64,000 bases of DNA from Clostridiales bacterium (GTDB lineage: Bacteria; Bacillota; Clostridia; Saccharofermentanales; Saccharofermentanaceae). The notes below the pieces were generated by a model. That model saw nothing but the letters and a program-made list of their open reading frames with translations, was not told where the DNA came from and made no database searches. Positions 7,301 through 35,821 of this stretch are shown here, one piece after another. The first letter of the stretch is position 1, and each line of letters starts with the position of its first letter. The stretch lies in assembly GCA_017510605.1 (NCBI GenBank), contig JAFWMQ010000008.1, positions 82,234 to 146,233 on the forward strand, written 5' to 3'. The position numbers and the translations under genes were made by a program.

Positions 7301-10300
7301 ATGAGTGAAAAGCGGAACATCACGTTAAAACTGGTGAAGGCCGTTCTGGGAATGGCCATGGCATTCTGCGTGCTTTTATCGTCTGCTCCTGTATTGCTTA
7401 GTGCAGATGATAATATCCCAGCCGATCCTGTGGAGAACCGCGAAGGATATGCAGCATACCTTTACGACAATACCACGGGGCTTCCCACATCAGAGGCAAA
7501 TGCCATAGCCGAGACTTCTGACGGCTTTTTATGGATAGGAAGCTATGGCGGTCTTATCAGATATGACGGAAATTCTTTCGAGAGATATAAGTCTACAACC
7601 GGTATTGCGAGCGTTGTCAGTCTGTTCGTTGACAGCACTGACAGACTTTGGATAGGAACCAATGACAACGGTGCTGCTGTAATGGACAGAAAAGGCAATG
7701 TAAAGATGTACGGAAAGAAGGACGGACTGCCTTCGGCTTCCGTAAGGGATTTTGCCGAAGGTCCCGGCGGTGAGATCTATGTAGCCACAACACAGGGTGT
7801 GGCTTTTGTGGATCAAGGCGGCAAACTTTCACTGATCGATGATTCCATGATCAATTCCGAATATGTCAGACGCCTCGAAACAGGTGCTGACGGTGTTACC
7901 TATGCTTTGACAATGGAGGGCAGTGTCTTTACGCTTGTGAACGGCGCGTTGGAACGTTTCTACAATGCGGATGATATTGGAATCGAAGGTATTCATGCAC
8001 TGACAGTAGATCCTTATAATCCCGGATATCTGTATCTCGGTACTAAGGGTTCGAAAATATGGTATGGAAGCCTTTCGGAAGGCTTCCCGAAGGACAAGAG
8101 GATCAATGTGGAGCCTCTCGAATATATTAACTCGATCATCTGCAAAAAAGACAGGATCTGGGTATGTGCTAATAATGGTGTTTGTGTCTACAAGGATGGA
8201 GATGAAAAACCCGAAATCCTTGAGAACATTCCGATGAATTCAAATATTGAAGGTCTGATATCCGATTATCAGGGAAATCTCTGGTTCGTATCATCAAGAC
8301 AGGGCGTAATGAAGATCGTCCCTAACCAGTTTACCAATGTTTTCGACCAGTATGATCTTCCCGAGACTGTTGTTAACACTACATGTTATTACGATAACAT
8401 GCTCTTTATCGGTACTGATTCCGGACTTATAGTTCTTGATGATGAAGGCGAGGTAAGCAGGATCAATATTAACAACGCCGTTACAGCATCAGGTGAACAC
8501 CTGGGCAATCTTGAACTTATATCGATGCTGAAAGGCATCAGGATACGATCGATAATAAAAGACAGTCATGACAGAATATGGATATCCACATATGGTGATA
8601 ATTCGCTGATCAGATTTGATCATGGTGATGTAAAGACCTTCGGAGTTGATGACGGTATGCCCTCCAAGCGTATCAGGGCAGTTTCCGAGTGCAGAGACGG
8701 TTCTTATCTTGTTGCCTGCACCGGAGGTCTTGTCGTTATACGTGATGATAAGGTAGACAAGGTCTATGATGCTTCTTCCGGCATTGGCAATATAGAGGTC
8801 CTTACTGTAGCTGAAGGAACGAATGGCGATATGCTGGTCGGTACCGACGGTGACGGCATCTATGTAGTGGGCGCTTCCGGAACTAAGCATCTTGATACAA
8901 CCAACGGCCTTTTCTCCGACGTCGTTATGAGGATCAAGAAAGATACCATGCGTGAAATCTATTGGATCGTAACGAGTAATTCGGTTGCATACATGACTGC
9001 TGATTATGAGATACATTCGATAATCAATTTCCCGTACTCCAACAACTTTGATATCTATGAGAATTCAAAGGGAGAACTGTGGGTATTGAGCAGTAACGGT
9101 ATTTATGTTGTCAGTGTTGATGAGATGCTCGAAAACGATGAGATCGAACCTGTATTTTACGGAATAGCAAACGGTCTTCCTGTTATTACCACGTCTAACT
9201 CCTACAGCTGCGTTACCGATGACGGCTATCTCTACATCGCCGCTTCTACAGGTGTCGCAAAGGTCAATATAGAGAAGCAGTTCGAGACTGTCGATAACAT
9301 TAAGATGACGGTTCCGTATATAGATGCAGACGGTGTGAAAATGTACCCGGATGATGATGGTGTCATAACCGTGCCGCTCGATGTAAAAAAGATTACCGTT
9401 TATCCTTATGTTTGTACGTATACGCTGATGGATCCGACTGTAACGTACAGTCTGCTCGGATTTGATTCAAATACTACGACCATTCACAGAAGCGATCTTA
9501 CTCCTATTGATTACACCAACCTCCGTGGCGGTACGTATGTCTTTAAGATGGTCATTTCGGATGCCATGGGACACGGAAGCAATGAGTATACTCTTACCAT
9601 AAACAAACAGATGGCTATCTACGAATACGCATGGTTCATCATCTGTGTTTCACTTCTGGTACTAGGCTTAATTGCTGTTCTCGTGTACCTTTACGTCAGA
9701 AAGAAGACCAAGAAGCTCTTAAAGAAACAGGAAGAGAACAGACTCCTCATCAGAGAGATCGTAGAAGCTTTCGCAAAGACGATCGATATGAAGGACAAAT
9801 ATACAAACGGTCACTCCAAGAGAGTTGCCGAATATACCGCGATGCTTGCGCGCGAACTCGGATACAATGAAGAAGCCGTTGAGAAGTATTACAACATCGC
9901 ATTGCTCCATGATATCGGTAAGATCGGTGTTCCCGGAGAAGTGCTCAATAAAGCCGGCAAGCTGGATGATGATGAATTCCAGACTATTAAGTCCCACACA
10001 TCTCTCGGATACAACGTTCTGAAAGATATCAGCATCATGCCTGAGCTTTCAGTCGGTGCTGAGGCACACCACGAGAGACCTGACGGAAAAGGCTATCCTA
10101 ACGGCCTCAAGGGTGATGAGATTCCGCGTGTCGCCCAGATAATCGGTGTTGCAGATGCTTTTGACGCGATGTATTCCAACCGTCCTTACAGAAACAGAAT
10201 GAATTTCGAGAAGGTCGTATCGATCATCAAAGGCGCTTCCGGCACGCAGCTTACAGAAGATGTAGTCGATGCATTCTTAAGGATCGTCGACCGCGGAGGC

Positions 10301-29995: not shown

Positions 29996-30008
29996 CAGGA
30001 GGATTTTG

Positions 30009-30449
30009 ATGGATAAAGAGTTAGTTGATTTTCTCATCAGGGCAAAACAGGCAACATATGCCGGCAAGGGTGCCGAGACGGTTTCTTCCAGAGTAGGTTC
30101 GCATGACCTCATCTATAGAGAAGGTCAGTATATGTACTATGACACATATCTCGGAGGGGACAAATTCGCTGGTGAAGAAGCTCTATGGATATCTGAGATT
30201 CCTTTTTGGAGCATGAACTATGTCGGACGTGTCATTGGTGATAACTTCAGCGGAGATTTCCTGAAGGAAGCACTGCTCCGTGTTCCTGAGGATAAGCCTT
30301 TCAGGGGACCATCAGAATATACTGATGGAGACTACACTTATAAATGTGATATTGACGGCGGTTACGAATGGTTCCAGGGAAAGGAGATCATAAGCCTTAA
30401 AGGCAATTTGATCTACGAGTGTTATTTCCACGGCGGCCTGATAAAGTAA
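30009..30449 (+). CDS. DUF5680-like hypothetical protein
   Basis: FLIRAKQATYAG; FAGEE; WSMNYVG; PFRGP; FHGG. Confidence 0.75.
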   Translation: MDKELVDFLIRAKQATYAGKGAETVSSRVGSHDLIYREGQYMYYDTYLGGDKFAGEEALWISEIPFWSMNYVGRVIGDNFSGDFLKEALLRVPEDKPFRGPSEYTDGDYTYKCDIDGGYEWFQGKEIISLKGNLIYECYFHGGLIK

Positions 30450-30946: not shown

Positions 30947-31192
30947 TTTTGCCTATGTTTTTCGCGATTTTTGATAGGCAAAACCCTGTACGGTGCCTGT
31001 CCACAAGATTCGGGGTCACGTCCGGAAACAGATTCCGACTCACCGTCCGACTTTTCGCGCGCGAAAACACGGAGAAAAAGTCGGAATTCCCAAAATCCGA
31101 CTTTTCTTCCGACTTTTTAGGCTTTACAGGTCGGATTTTTCCGGCTGAACGATGCCGCTTTACAGGTCGGATCTCCTCGACTGAATGAAGCC
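30947..31192. repeat. REP-like palindromic/iterated intergenic element (TCCGAC core)
   Basis: Seven TCCGAC/GTCGGA cores, a 16-bp palindrome TTTTCGCGCGCGAAAA, a 10-bp-stem hairpin and a 36-bp tandem duplication. Confidence 0.75.
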
Positions 31193-31223
31193 CTGCCTGA
31201 TCGATCCGCTTTTCCGCGCGTGA

Positions 31224-32354
31224 TCAGATGTACGTTCCCAGATAAGCGAACTCGGTAGGTTCGGCATCAAGTTCGCAGAGGAGCGCGATAACTTCTTCGG
31301 AATATACGGATGCTTCGAAATCAAGATAGAACATGAATTCAAAATCTTTTCCGGATATCGGGCGGGATTCGATCTTTGTAAGATTAAGTCCCAATGATGA
31401 GAACTTTGCGAGTGTGTCTGCAAGAGCACCGGGGGTGTGACCCAGAGCGAGCATGACGGAAGTCTTGGAAGCACCGGGGAAAATCATGAGCTCCTTGGTG
31501 ATGCAGATGAAACGTGTGTAATTGTTGTCTGTGTTCTGGATATCATCGCGGATCGATTCAAGACCATAGAGCTGCTGGCAGTCTGAAGATGAGATAGCAG
31601 CAACGTCTTTGCGGCCGGAATCAGCGACGCTCTTTGCAGCAACAGCAGTGTTCTCGACGATGTTGACTTTGATATCCGGGTGCTCTTTAAGGAATTTGCT
31701 GCATTGGCCGATGGCCTGGTTGTGTGAATAAACTTCGCGGATATCTTCGAATCTTGTTCCGTGATTTGCGAGGAGCTTGTGGCTGATCCTGAGTTTGTAA
31801 TCTCTTACGATATGGAAATTGTGGCCGACCATGAGGTCATAAACCTGGGTGACGGAACCGAATGAACTGTTCTCGATAGGGAGGATGCCGAATTTGCAAA
31901 GGCCGGATTCGACTGCCTGGAAAACACCGTCGAAAGTTCTGAAATACATGATGTTTGCGTGACGGAAGATCTTATCTGTCGCAATCTGGGAGTAAGCTCC
32001 CTCGATGCCCTGGCAGGCAACCATTGGTGATTTGGGGAATTCATTAGGGGTAGTCTCTAACGCTTTGTGGATCTGGTCTGCTAGTCCGGTGCGGGTTCCG
32101 TACTCTGTGTTGCGGTAGGAGTGGCTCAGGTTAAACATCGTGGAGAAAAGAACGCGTTCGTAATTATCGATCAGTGAGTTTGAACTCTCAAGTCCTGCAA
32201 GGTAACTTCGCTCATAGCGTCTGCTCTTTAATGCTATCTCGGATTTGCTCAAAGTCTCATTTGCCGCTTTGCTTGCTTCCAAGCGCTCAGCGAAAAGTTC
32301 CTTGATCTGTTCGTCGATCTCTTCAATTCTTTTTCCAGCCTGCTTCTGTGTCAT
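31224..32354 (-). CDS. pheA: Chorismate mutase/prephenate dehydratase
   Basis: N-terminal CM-like domain; ACQGIEGAYS, LPIENS, SHNQAIGQC, NYTRF, LTKIESRP, FYLDF (ACT). Confidence 0.93.
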   Translation of the reverse strand: MTQKQAGKRIEEIDEQIKELFAERLEASKAANETLSKSEIALKSRRYERSYLAGLESSNSLIDNYERVLFSTMFNLSHSYRNTEYGTRTGLADQIHKALETTPNEFPKSPMVACQGIEGAYSQIATDKIFRHANIMYFRTFDGVFQAVESGLCKFGILPIENSSFGSVTQVYDLMVGHNFHIVRDYKLRISHKLLANHGTRFEDIREVYSHNQAIGQCSKFLKEHPDIKVNIVENTAVAAKSVADSGRKDVAAISSSDCQQLYGLESIRDDIQNTDNNYTRFICITKELMIFPGASKTSVMLALGHTPGALADTLAKFSSLGLNLTKIESRPISGKDFEFMFYLDFEASVYSEEVIALLCELDAEPTEFAYLGTYI

Positions 32355-32372
32355 TGTCTTTTCCTCCGTGAT

Positions 32373-32407
32373 ATAAAAAGCCCCGCAGTCTTGTTCACTG
32401 CGGGGCT
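32373..32407 (-). terminator. Attenuator terminator in the pheA leader
   Basis: Minus strand AGCCCCGCAGT-gaacaag-ACTGCGGGGCT-TTTTAT. Confidence 0.92.
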
Positions 32408-32448
32408 CTGATAATCGTAAACCAAGTTAAATATTTACATGCAGTGAA

Positions 32449-32514
32449 CTAATTACCCCTATTCGTAAAGGCAAAAAAGAAAAAGTCACGCCATGTAAAT
32501 GCAAATTTGTTCAT
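32449..32514 (-). CDS. Phe-rich leader peptide MNKFAFTWRDFFFFAFTNRGN (PheL-like)
   Basis: 7 of 21 codons are Phe, including four consecutive; sits directly upstream of antiterminator and terminator. Confidence 0.88.
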   Translation of the reverse strand: MNKFAFTWRDFFFFAFTNRGN

Positions 32515-32521
32515 GGGGGTA

Positions 32522-32549
32522 ATTATATACCACATTTCAGATTTGTAAA
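32522..32549 (-). promoter_or_regulatory. Promoter of the pheA leader
   Basis: TTTACA (32544-49), 16 nt, TATAAT (32522-27); 7 nt to the leader ATG and no SD. Confidence 0.7.
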
Positions 32550-32622
32550 CACATTCGCGGTTATTTGTCTGAAAACTCGCCGTAATATTAAAAAATACTA
32601 ATTTATGCTACAATTACTCCCT

Positions 32623-33972
32623 ATGAAGAAACTACGGGTATTTACAGCAATTCTTTTTTGCAAGATCATCAGGGCTCTTGCAAGGCTTTTCGGGCGCGGA
32701 TCGAGCCTGCCCGGCAAATATGCCCTTAAGATATGTCCTGATATCCTGTCATGCTTAAAACTTCCGGAGTTATCTGTTGCTGTTACCGGCTCGAACGGTA
32801 AGACTTCCACGGTCGAGATGATCGCTCACATTCTTAAGAGCAACGGCCTTAAAGTCGCTTATAACAAGGAAGGCTCTAACCAGATCGAAGGAGTCGTAAC
32901 TTTTCTCATCGGTGATTCCACATTAGGAGGAAAAGTAAAGAGCGATGTTATTTTGCTCGAAGCTGATGAGAGATATTCAAGGCATATCTTCAAACATTTC
33001 CATCCGAAATATTTCGTTATAAACAACCTGTACAGGGATCAGATGACGAGGAACGGCCATCCAGAATGGATCAAAAGTATTATAGGTGATGCGATCTACG
33101 ATGATATGACACTGATACTCAACAGTGATGATCCGCTGGTCGCAAGCTTTGGCAAGGACAGGGAAGGCACGATCTATTTCGGCGCTGACAGACTTGCTGC
33201 TGACAAAACGGTTCATGAGGGAATCTACAATGACGGTAAATATTGTCCTGTCTGCAAAAAGCCTATGGAATACGAGTACTACCACTACAATCACATCGGA
33301 AAGTTCAGGTGTACATCCTGCGGCTTCGCAAGGCATGATACTGATCACTCCCTTACCGGTATGAATGAAGCAGACGGCAGGGCTTCTATAACGATAGACG
33401 GAAAATACGATATACCTGTTTTCTTTACAGGCATTTACCATTGCTATAACATTCTCGCGGCTTTCACTGCTTCGGTCGCGGCCGGAATCGCTCCGGAAAA
33501 AGCAGCTGAATCGCTCGGAGGATATGTCCTTAAGTCAGGACGTATTTCCGATTTTACTTTGGGAAACTTAGAGGGCAGACTGCTTCTTTCCAAGCATGAG
33601 AACTCGGTGTCCTATGACCGCTCGATCGATGTTGTTGTAAACGACAAGCGAAGGAAGAGCGTCATGATAATAGTTGACGCGATAAGCCGCAAATATTACA
33701 CCTCGGATTCGAGCTGGCTTTGGGATATTAATTTCGAGAAACTGATCGGTGCGGATATTGATAAGATCATTCTCGCAGGCCAGTATTGTGACGATCTGGC
33801 TGTCAGGTTTGAACTGGGAGGCGCGGACAGTTCGAAAACAGTATTTTTCGAGACTGTTCAGGAAGCGGCAGATTACTGCAGAAATAACCTTGATTCGTTC
33901 CTTTATGTCATCACATGTTTCTCCGACAAGGATAAGATCCTTTCTATCGTTACAAGGAGGGAACTTGCATGA
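32623..33972 (+). CDS. murT: Lipid II isoglutaminyl synthase subunit MurT (Mur ligase with DUF1727)
   Basis: VTGSNGKTS, LEADE, NLYRDQMTRNG, CPVC...CTSC insert, DSSWLWD; overlaps a gatD-like gene. Confidence 0.88.
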   Translation: MKKLRVFTAILFCKIIRALARLFGRGSSLPGKYALKICPDILSCLKLPELSVAVTGSNGKTSTVEMIAHILKSNGLKVAYNKEGSNQIEGVVTFLIGDSTLGGKVKSDVILLEADERYSRHIFKHFHPKYFVINNLYRDQMTRNGHPEWIKSIIGDAIYDDMTLILNSDDPLVASFGKDREGTIYFGADRLAADKTVHEGIYNDGKYCPVCKKPMEYEYYHYNHIGKFRCTSCGFARHDTDHSLTGMNEADGRASITIDGKYDIPVFFTGIYHCYNILAAFTASVAAGIAPEKAAESLGGYVLKSGRISDFTLGNLEGRLLLSKHENSVSYDRSIDVVVNDKRRKSVMIIVDAISRKYYTSDSSWLWDINFEKLIGADIDKIILAGQYCDDLAVRFELGGADSSKTVFFETVQEAADYCRNNLDSFLYVITCFSDKDKILSIVTRRELA

Positions 33973-34685
33973 AGATCCTGTATCTCTATCCGGATTTTAT
34001 GAGCCTTTACGGTGATAACGGAAATGTCAGGATCATGGAGCGCAGGCTCAGGGATCAGGGCTTTGACGTTGAGACCGCAAGAGCCACGATCACTGATGAT
34101 CTTATCAGTTTTGAAGATATTGATTTTGTCTATATGGGTTCTGGTTTTGAGTCCAACAGGAATCTTGCAGCCGTTCATCTTGCCCGTTTCAAAGATCAGT
34201 TGATCAAAGCGGTTGATGACGGAGTCCCTATGCTTTTTACAGGCAACAGTTATGACATTCTCGGCAGCGGGATCAGGACTTTTGACGGAAGTGTTGTTGA
34301 AGGCCTCGGGTTATTTGACTATTCGTTCACCGAGCAGCTCGAAAAAAGATATACCGGCGATGTTGTACTGAAAGACCCCGGAACCGGTGAACTGTATGCC
34401 GGATTCGTAAACCGTGCCGGTGTTCCGGATGACCCTTCCTGTTTTGAATTTGAAGTCATAAAAACAATCGGAAATGTACCCATGAGAAAAGACGGTGTCC
34501 GCAAGAATAATCTTCTCGGTATCAGCCTTATCGGCCCTGTTCTTCTCAAGAATCCGAAGATCGCAGAATCATTTGTAAAGACCATATGTGAGCGCAAAGG
34601 CTCGGAATACAAAGAGATCAGTTATCCTCACTCGGAAAGAAGCCACGATAAAACATACAAAGCACTTCTCAGCGCTGAAGACTGA
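33969..34685 (+). CDS. gatD: GatD/CobQ-like glutamine amidotransferase homologue with catalytic residues substituted
   Basis: LYPDFMSLYGDNGNV, YMGSG, GPVLLKNP conserved; the nucleophile and His positions read G and I. Confidence 0.8.
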   Translation: MKILYLYPDFMSLYGDNGNVRIMERRLRDQGFDVETARATITDDLISFEDIDFVYMGSGFESNRNLAAVHLARFKDQLIKAVDDGVPMLFTGNSYDILGSGIRTFDGSVVEGLGLFDYSFTEQLEKRYTGDVVLKDPGTGELYAGFVNRAGVPDDPSCFEFEVIKTIGNVPMRKDGVRKNNLLGISLIGPVLLKNPKIAESFVKTICERKGSEYKEISYPHSERSHDKTYKALLSAED

Positions 34686-34735: not shown

Positions 34736-35821
34736 ATGGCTGATACAATTAAATGCCCCAATTGCGGGTCTAATCTCACACTTAATGCTGACACTCAAAA
34801 ACTTGAATGTCCTAATTGCGGATCCACATTTGATCCCAATTCGCTTGCTGTAACGGTAGAAGAACTTGAAGCGAAGAAAGCAGAACCTACTGATCCTGCA
34901 CAGTCACAGCAGCCTCAGGGAGAAGAGCAGCCTCAGGGTGCTCCTGAACAGACCGAATTTGTATGCAATGCTTGCGGAGCCAAACTTGTAACTGACGCAC
35001 ATACTGCTGCAACTTTCTGTGCGTTCTGCGGATCTCCTGCACTTGTCGGAAAGAGACTGACCGAGCAGTTCCAGCCTCAGTACATGATTCCTTTCAAATA
35101 CTCAAGAAGCTCTGCCGAAGATGCTTTTTTCAAGTGGGCAGGCAAAGGCAAATGGACACCGTTCGGATTTGTTTCAAAGAAGAGCGTCCAGAAGATGACA
35201 GGTCTTTATGTCCCTTTCTGGCTCTTCAATATTAAAGCAACTATCGATGCGCACGGAACGGGCGATAAGATCCACTATAAAGGCAATGACGAGATCATCG
35301 AGACATTTTCTTTTGACAGGAATGCATCGCTCAGCTGGAGCCATGTACCGCTTGACGGTGAGACTAGGATCGATGACGCTCTGATGGAAGCTATCGAACC
35401 GTTCGATTTTAATGCCCTCATACCATACGACTACAGATATCTTCCGGGGTTCTATGCAGACAGGTTCGACCAGTCTCCCCAAGATCTTGCCGGCCGCGCA
35501 ACAAAGCGTGGAATGGACGGAATCGATAAGGCTCTCAAGGGTTCCTTGAAGGGTACTTTCGACAGATTTAACATCAAGGAGAACAAGAGCAGGATAGATT
35601 CGATGGAAGCAAACTATGCATTGCTCCCTGTATGGTTCCTGTCATACAAATACCGCAACAAGTTTTATTATTTTGCCATGAACGGACAGACCGGCGAAGT
35701 AGCAGGAAAGATCCCTGTAAGCCCGGTTAAGAAGATGATGTTCTTCTTTATCGTTCTCGGTATTCTGGCCGTCATTACAAGATTTGTCTTGGGCCTTATC
35801 ATGAGGGGGTTCTGGGGATGA
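34736..35821 (+). CDS. Multi-zinc-ribbon membrane-anchored protein
   Basis: CPNCG, CPNCG, CNACG, CAFCG; NGQTGEVAG; C-terminal TM. Confidence 0.82.
   Translation: MADTIKCPNCGSNLTLNADTQKLECPNCGSTFDPNSLAVTVEELEAKKAEPTDPAQSQQPQGEEQPQGAPEQTEFVCNACGAKLVTDAHTAATFCAFCGSPALVGKRLTEQFQPQYMIPFKYSRSSAEDAFFKWAGKGKWTPFGFVSKKSVQKMTGLYVPFWLFNIKATIDAHGTGDKIHYKGNDEIIETFSFDRNASLSWSHVPLDGETRIDDALMEAIEPFDFNALIPYDYRYLPGFYADRFDQSPQDLAGRATKRGMDGIDKALKGSLKGTFDRFNIKENKSRIDSMEANYALLPVWFLSYKYRNKFYYFAMNGQTGEVAGKIPVSPVKKMMFFFIVLGILAVITRFVLGLIMRGFWG

Follow-up and report, generated by a model that had tools for sequence, protein, structure and literature searches.

We analysed a 64-kb stretch of DNA (hereafter the window) and found, immediately upstream of pheA, an element that is very probably a Phe-sensing, ribosome-mediated transcription attenuator of this gene, judging from sequence comparison, folding and simulation. 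The element lies on the minus strand and leads from a promoter through a short Phe-rich leader ORF, three alternative helices and a U-tract into pheA (Table 1). The original prediction had listed a promoter followed by an ORF with seven Phe codons and three mutually exclusive pairings, and each of these elements was found where it had been placed, with exact complementarity in all three pairings.

The downstream gene had been taken for pheA in a clostridial host, and both identifications held. The pheA product matched the Pfam PDT model (5e-58) together with an ACT domain, as well as the NCBIfam prephenate dehydratase model (2e-63), with a weak match to CM_mono (4e-4) at its N-terminus, and the model of the bifunctional chorismate mutase/prephenate dehydratase (P-protein) aligned over residues 8-375 of PheA. 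The source genome of the window is Saccharofermentans, class Clostridia; the genomes nearest to it, MAGs as well as isolates, are Saccharofermentans from rumen and gut, and their PheA identities reach 99%. The attenuator has a single downstream gene, pheA. Only ~20 nt separate the end of the terminator from the start of pheA, which leaves no space for a separate promoter, and since the sole good promoter precedes the leader and pheA has none of its own, transcription of pheA has to cross the terminator. On the other side of the leader lies murT, followed by a gene for a GatD-like amidotransferase; as murT is divergent, the terminator does not serve the upstream gene.

Table 1. Features of the pheA leader and its neighbours, in window coordinates.
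Feature	Position	Strand	Description
Leader element	32373-32549	minus	promoter, leader ORF, three alternative helices, U-tract, then pheA
-35 box TTTACA	32544..32549	minus	TTTACA or TTTACT, with a spacer of 16-17 nt, in 37/41 relatives
-10 box TATAAT	32522..32527	minus	last base 7 nt before the leader ATG; TATAAT in 40/41 relatives
Leader ORF (pheL-like)	32449..32514	minus	21 codons plus TAG (32451-32449); MNKFAFTWRDFFFFAFTNRGN; 7 Phe
Region 1, AUUUACAUGGCGUGAC	32485..32500	minus	inside the ORF (codons 5-10); anti-antiterminator strand
Four-Phe-codon run UUU UUC UUU UUU	32473..32484	minus	codons 11-14; proposed stall site
Region 2, GUUCACUGCAUGUAAAU	32433..32449	minus	partner of region 1 or region 3; begins at the final base of the stop codon
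Region 3, GCAGUGAAC	32393..32401	minus	antiterminator partner; upper end of the terminator 5' arm plus some loop bases
Terminator hairpin 3:4, GAGCCCCGCAGU / ACUGCGGGGCUU	32378..32408	minus	12 bp, GC-rich, 7-nt loop
U-tract UUUUUAU	32373..32379	minus	expected attenuated 3' end; T-rich tail conserved in the alignment
pheA Shine-Dalgarno GGAGG	32363..32367	minus	8 nt 5' of the pheA ATG (32354)
pheA	31224..32354	minus	376 aa; prephenate dehydratase, ACT and weak N-terminal chorismate-mutase-like domain
murT start	TACAAT 32609-32614; ATG 32623		divergent from pheA; extended -10, no SD

The element is conserved as a whole in a restricted group of genomes. Scanning a genome collection with PheA yielded 80 loci, and we aligned the 41 leaders for which the upstream sequence could be used and PheA identity was 59% or more (L001-L036, L038-L040 and L055, plus the window). 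Promoter, ATG, Phe-rich ORF, helices and terminator preceded pheA in all 41, which belong to the Saccharofermentans/'Mageeibacillus' group (PheA identity 59-99%), so the search for Phe-rich ORFs upstream of pheA in Clostridia, proposed as a check at the outset, was positive throughout this range. Loci with PheA identity of 56% or less had no leader, and in all of these pheA directly follows aroC. A covariance model of the leader gave nothing significant in 40 more distant Oscillospirales pheA loci, and detected one copy only in the 64-kb window (156.9 bits). We also scanned metagenomes with a gapped DNA pattern, which was too loose: 8 of 120 loci were true copies, all before pheA and of the same family, and they added nothing new on the spread of the leader. 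Two isolates of the Hungate collection, Ruminococcaceae bacterium YAD3003 and AB4001, carry the element, which makes experiments feasible.

The promoter of the leader agrees with the consensus at 11 of 12 positions, has a 16-nt spacer and is the top promoter-like site within 31000-34000. In the window, TATAAT and the ATG at 32514 are separated by the sequence TACCCCC; of the 41 leaders, 34 have 6 nt between -10 box and ATG, 6 have 7 nt (the window included) and 1 has 9 nt. Transcription is expected to start at a purine 7-8 nt past the -10 box, and the leader mRNA would thus be expected to begin with AUG, its predicted 5' end being the A of the ATG or the nucleotide before it. SD-like tetramers (GGAG, GAGG, AGGA or AAGG) at -16 to -4 of the leader ATG were found in 0/41. 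The original prediction had remarked on an ATG only 7 nt past TATAAT and on the missing SD; both traits are general, with a spacing of 6-7 nt in 40/41 genomes. We consider it probable that the leader mRNA is truly leaderless.

The neighbouring gene offers independent support for such starts in the Saccharofermentans lineage. In 22 relatives, murT is SD-less and has an extended -10 box (TGnTAnAAT) 7-9 nt before the ATG that opens its conserved N-terminus (MK[I/L][R/K]VFTAIL...). In the window, annotation pipelines probably misplace this start at 32605, rather than at 32623. Several other genes of the window likewise start 6-9 nt past a -10-like box with no SD, and the genes at 7301, 38301, 61109 and 40165 look similar. 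Leaderless genes, murT being one example, seem to be unusually common in this lineage for Clostridia.

Transcripts of the locus are present in public data: bovine rumen metatranscriptome assemblies contain the leader together with pheA. In run X1, summed contig depth was 240-1020 over the leader (32378-32507), 60 upstream of 32520 and 126-370 over pheA, and it fell from about 240 to 60 across 32508-32520, contig depth being an unreliable measure. The contigs are unstranded and derive from a mixture of strains, and one of them (32449-32843) spans both promoters, so that, with such a poor measure, the profile is not decisive. It is compatible with a start near 32514 followed by partial termination, to which it lends weak support.

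The contig that crosses the promoter region would also fit a Phe attenuator that is not leaderless, with transcription starting further upstream and translation beginning either at an SD-less internal AUG or at an in-frame ATG at 32535. Firmicutes as a whole would favour this reading, leaderless genes being predicted for ~4% of their genes, mostly in Lactobacillales and Mycoplasma (PMC3160421). However, the ATG at 32535 falls between the two promoter boxes and most relatives lack it, and we rejected it as the real start. The near-consensus promoter, the narrow range of distances between its -10 box and the ATG, the lack of any SD-like sequence in the alignment, and the same arrangement at murT and at several other genes of the window also speak against an upstream start, which we regard as unlikely.

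The leader ORF stands out for its Phe content. Among the 726 small ORFs of the window (ATG-started, 15-40 aa, six frames), it ranks first both in Phe count and in Phe fraction. Its ATG is invariant in 41/41 genomes, yet the peptides are diverse: there are 28 distinct sequences of 17-29 aa, each with 5-9 Phe, and the central Phe cluster appears in variants such as FFFFAF, FSFFAF, FTFFAF and FFFGFGFF. What is kept across these differing peptides is only the Phe positions and the bases that form structure. TTT and TTC triplets are concentrated in the reading frame (261 in frame versus 69 and 102 in the other two, over the 41 sequences), and isolated TTT triplets are all in frame. Indels in the alignment measure 3 and 9 nt within the ORF and are of any length 3' of it. 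The stop codon changes identity (TAG, TAA or TGA) while lying 5-9 nt before the core of region 2 in 39/41 leaders; the two exceptions are L025, with a stop 18 nt before region 2, and L038, whose ORF runs through region 2. Such a coding pattern is predicted by selection on translation, and selection for U-rich RNA alone would be insufficient to produce it.

The diversity of the peptides also bears on a simpler reading of the locus, in which the leader would be a free-standing sRNA or a gene for a small hydrophobic protein, followed by a constitutive terminator, with pheA expressed by unregulated leak-through. The leader peptide is indeed hydrophobic, and the leader is seemingly more abundant than pheA in the metatranscriptome contigs. 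Nevertheless, a gene with a function of its own is hard to reconcile with 28 different peptides in 41 genomes in which little besides Phe positions and structural bases is kept, and with a position that is always immediately before pheA. Moreover, a constitutive terminator would have no use for the conserved antiterminator described below, loop bases included. We find this reading extremely improbable.

The RNA of the leader can adopt alternative folds. Folding of the whole leader gave -48.8 kcal/mol (z = -6.4; 0/200 shuffles as good), and its minimum free energy structure combines helix 1:2 with the terminator; without the terminator, the fold is no better than that of shuffled sequences (z = -1.04). 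Helix 1:2 pairs AUUUACAUG (32500-32492) with CAUGUAAAU (32441-32433), plus GUGAC with GU-UCAC. Helix 2:3 pairs GUUCACUGC (32449-32441) with GCAGUGAAC (32401-32393), 9/9 bases being complementary, and it forms when the leader is folded without regions 1 and 4. The sequence GUUCACUGC-AUGUAAAU follows the leader stop codon at once.

We measured the support for each helix across the 41 leaders. The terminator was recovered by RNAalifold unaided, with 95.9% of cells paired, compensatory change in 6/12 pairs and covariation that 0/500 shuffles reached. Helix 2:3 was paired in 100% of cells, with two compensatory pairs, and again 0/500 shuffles reached the observed covariation; the compensatory change is from GC to UA in five sequences. 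The core of region 2, UCACUGC, which pairs with GCAGUGA, is invariant or nearly so, and the loop bases GUGA are invariant. Terminator loops usually drift, and the invariance of these bases therefore argues for the alternative 2:3 pairing.

Support for helix 1:2 is weaker than for 2:3 and 3:4. In the MAFFT columns, 86.9% of cells were paired, no better than in shuffles (the covariation test was not significant), and RNAalifold did not call this helix over the 41 leaders. In folds of individual sequences, the region-2 core pairs with nt 23-28 of the ORF in 41/41, and the outer stem takes a different form by lineage: AUUUACAUG/CAUGUAAAU, GGUUUACA/UGUAGACC, GUCUUU/AAAGAC and ACAUUUUU/AAAAAUGU. Duplex energies for 1:2 were more favourable within the same sequence than across clades for clades A, B and D, clade C being the exception. 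RNAalifold identified no conserved complex fold besides the hairpins. Two further hairpins were considered. A small one in the 3' half of the ORF (UUGCCUUUA/UAGGGGUAA) was rejected as a conserved or pause element (79% paired, not above shuffles). Another, UGUAAAU/GUUUACG, lies within the antiterminator in the fold of the window, and its sequence is limited to the closest clade.

We then simulated the footprint of a ribosome on all 41 leaders, masking 28 nt and folding transcripts truncated at the terminator's 3' arm. A ribosome whose A site lay over the central Phe codons allowed helix 2:3 to form in 41/41 sequences, the window included. One whose A site lay over the stop codon blocked this helix in 40/41, the exception being the leader with the distant stop (L025). 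With no ribosome mask, helix 1:2 was favoured in 22 of the truncated leaders and helix 2:3 in the other 19; given this split, termination of an untranslated leader would rest on the order and kinetics of co-transcriptional folding, and not on thermodynamics.

These results suggest the following sequence of events. RNA polymerase would start at the A of the leader ATG or 1 nt before it, and a 70S ribosome would load on the AUG at the very 5' end, without the help of a Shine-Dalgarno sequence, and translate the 21 codons. When Phe-tRNA(Phe) is scarce, the ribosome would stall at the FFFF(A)F cluster (codons 11-16), with its footprint covering region 1. Region 2 (GUUCACUGC) would then be free to pair with the emerging region 3 (GCAGUGAAC), and with region 3 held in helix 2:3 no terminator stem would form, allowing the polymerase to continue into pheA. 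When Phe is ample, the ribosome would reach the UAG, which abuts region 2, and mask this region, so that the 3:4 hairpin and the U-tract would release a transcript ending near 32373-32375. If the ribosome is absent, region 1 would pair with region 2 and the terminator would again be free to form. The start site of transcription, the translation of the leader ORF, the stalling and the Phe-dependent read-through are predictions of this scheme.

A switch could in principle be worked by an agent other than the ribosome (a protein binding the U-rich tract, an RNA that binds a small molecule or an uncharged tRNA acting on it), the ORF being incidental. The Phe codons double as a plain U-rich tract, and the weak covariation support for helix 1:2 would fit such a switch. 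So would the biology of the phylum: T-boxes, riboswitches and RNA-binding proteins are common in Bacillota, which are classed at the phylum level as having 'runaway' transcription, with polymerases outpacing ribosomes (PMC13323073). Against this stand the coding features of the leader, namely the invariant ATG at its fixed distance from the -10 box, the in-frame bias of TTT, the indels in multiples of 3 within the ORF, and the stop codon that changes identity yet holds its distance to region 2. T-box and riboswitch models gave no match either, and the alignment holds no conserved complex fold besides the hairpins. We therefore judge a non-ribosomal switch to be very unlikely. Phe-sensing ribosome-mediated attenuation of pheA on a leaderless leader-peptide mRNA would, in our assessment, account best for the data as a whole, and we hold this explanation with considerable confidence.

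We compared the element with known RNA families using cmscan. All 4227 Rfam families, T-box included, gave no match at gathering score anywhere in the 64 kb, and a permissive search (E up to 10) over 32200-32750 found no T-box. This agrees with the absence of a T-box motif noted beforehand, and rules out a T-box, a riboswitch or another known leader. There were nine weak Rfam matches (E up to 10), among which Phe_leader (RF01859) was the only leader family; over 32200-32750 it scored 16.7 bits (E = 4.5) against a gathering score of 55, with only the terminator aligned. The trpB motif reached 23.4 bits against 59, also via the terminator only. Homology to E. coli pheL is thus ruled out. Because the Phe_leader match is limited to the terminator, the likeness to pheL is mechanistic and not homologous, which fits the independent evolution that the original prediction had proposed. 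The element represents a new and apparently convergent RNA family, not contained in Rfam, that would work by a known mechanism.

The closest mechanistic counterpart is the pheL-pheA system, in which attenuation is documented for 53 gammaproteobacterial genes (PMC3082878). Both systems place a Phe-rich short ORF and regions 1-4 before the same gene (PMC3082878), and in E. coli, as here, an intrinsic terminator lies directly before pheA and the stop codon lies beside region 2. Unlike E. coli pheL, the leader described here has no SD, lies at the inferred 5' end of its mRNA, encodes an unrelated peptide and belongs to a Clostridia host.

Leaderless mRNAs are common in Actinobacteria, and sensory leader peptides on such transcripts are already known there; the leaderless start is thus a twist on a known theme and not a new principle. 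In Corynebacterium glutamicum, RBS-less leader peptides lie on leaderless transcripts of ilvB, trpL, leuA and aroF (PMC4046766; also Morbach 2000, as cited therein). Like the present leader, these are leaderless leader peptides attenuating genes of amino-acid biosynthesis, and the aroF leader contains Phe-Tyr-Phe. In contrast, phylum, gene and sequences are different here, and the signal consists of Phe only, with 5-9 Phe codons. In mycobacteria, leaderless poly-Cys short ORFs attenuate translation (bioRxiv 10.1101/834739); they share with this leader a leaderless sensory ORF on which a stalled ribosome remodels downstream RNA in response to one amino acid. Their output is translation, through unmasking of the RBS, whereas the output here would be an intrinsic transcription terminator, the pheA SD not being sequestered.

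Control of amino-acid genes in Firmicutes is usually exerted by T-boxes. Like the leader of pheA, T-box leaders decide between terminator and antiterminator before an amino-acid gene and report on tRNA charging. In contrast to them, this leader has no specifier loop or T-box sequence, and charging would be sensed via the ribosome instead of by direct binding of the tRNA. Ribosome-mediated attenuators do occur in the phylum: the earliest Firmicutes leader peptides to be noted were those for His in bacilli (PMC2965389), His leader peptides were later predicted in the B. cereus group, Peptostreptococcaceae and Erysipelotrichales (PMC9413887), and a Leu leader peptide was shown for S. aureus ilv (PMC5794164). 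As with the pheA leader, they take the place of the T-box expected in Gram-positive bacteria, are confined to particular lineages and seem to have independent origins; the amino acid and the gene are others here, and a leaderless start is not among the features described for them in the parts of these sources that we consulted. The original prediction had called this type of control rarely described. This stands for Phe, since a literature search, which was not exhaustive, retrieved no Phe leader peptide at pheA in Clostridia or Saccharofermentans; it does not extend to leader peptides in Firmicutes, given the His and Leu cases, nor to leaderless leader peptides, given those of Actinobacteria.

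Runaway transcription in Bacillota is an argument against coupling, unless the polymerase is held up within the leader. Since transcription and translation are thought to be uncoupled in this phylum, a terminator switch driven by the ribosome could work there only with pausing or local coupling, and this makes the pheA leader a natural test case. One way in which initiation, too, could be tied to the polymerase is that, in this independently evolved attenuator, the 70S ribosome loads on the 5'-AUG as soon as it leaves the polymerase, an idea that we advance tentatively and consider somewhat doubtful. If true, Bacillota would have their first documented amino-acid attenuator that is both leaderless and of the terminator type, and the pheA leader could belong to a larger group of leaderless short ORFs with a sensory role in the Saccharofermentans lineage.

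More broadly, the pheA leader indicates that Proteobacteria are not alone in having evolved the classical control of pheA by a leader peptide, and that it also arose in a lineage of Clostridia where a T-box would be expected. The element would join a terminator-type output to a leaderless start, a combination known until now mainly from Actinobacteria, in a leader gene of 21 codons that will escape annotation pipelines.

In loci L041-L080 of our PheA genome-collection scan, which belong to more distant Oscillospirales and to the Chloroflexi Flexilinea and Leptolinea, pheA lies 3' of aroC (chorismate synthase), directly or past a short spacer, and no leader precedes it. In the Saccharofermentans group, the presence of the attenuator (the predicted Phe-rich leader and terminator) coincides with pheA having become a transcription unit of its own. 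The intergenic region 3' of pheA (30990-31220, minus strand) contains inverted repeats built from multiple GTCGGA/TCCGAC copies. A terminator-like hairpin is found there, and pheA therefore looks monocistronic.

Features around the pheA locus
Feature	Position	Strand	Remark
DUF5680 protein	30006-30449	+	near pheA locus
Terminator-like hairpin GAAAAGUCGGA...UCCGACUUUUUC	about 31074-31106	-	one of the GTCGGA/TCCGAC inverted repeats
Variant GTTTTCAGACA of upstream motif	32566-32576	-	counterpart of relatives' GTTTTCGAACA
murT ORF (Mur-ligase middle domain and MurT_C)	32605-33972	+	first ATG of ORF at 32605
murT extended -10 box TGcTACAAT	32609-32614 (hexamer)	+	8 nt before ATG 32623
361-aa protein, N-terminal TFIIB-type zinc ribbon	34736-35821	+	near pheA locus

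Many relatives carry a conserved motif, GTTTTCGAACA, upstream of the leader promoter. It includes the palindrome TTCGAA and precedes the -35 box by about 20 nt (for example in L002, L003, and L005), and it is missing in relatives with a different upstream neighbor (L010, L016-L019). The motif might serve as an operator or as an UP-like element, or it might belong to the shared divergent control region. A single metatranscriptome contig (bovine rumen run X1, depth 60) covers 32449-32843, running from the stop codon of the leader through the two divergent promoters and into murT; being unstranded, it could stem from DNA carry-over, read-through, or antisense RNA.

The divergent murT probably starts at ATG 32623, which follows the extended -10 box and has no SD, rather than at the first ATG of its ORF. 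In 22 relatives, TGnTAnAAT is likewise followed after 7-9 nt by an ATG that opens a conserved MK[IL][RK]VFTAIL N-terminus, so that a leaderless start of murT seems to be conserved. Across the whole window (1-64000), no Rfam family reached its gathering score, with no tRNA, riboswitch, or T-box, and the DUF5680 and zinc-ribbon proteins appear unrelated to the attenuator.

Four further long ORFs, starting at 7301, 38301, 61109, and 40165 (plus strand), each begin 6-9 nt past a -10-like hexamer (TAAAAT, TATAAT, TACAAT, or TGgTATAAT), and none of these starts has an SD. The Saccharofermentans lineage of Clostridia may be unusually rich in leaderless genes.
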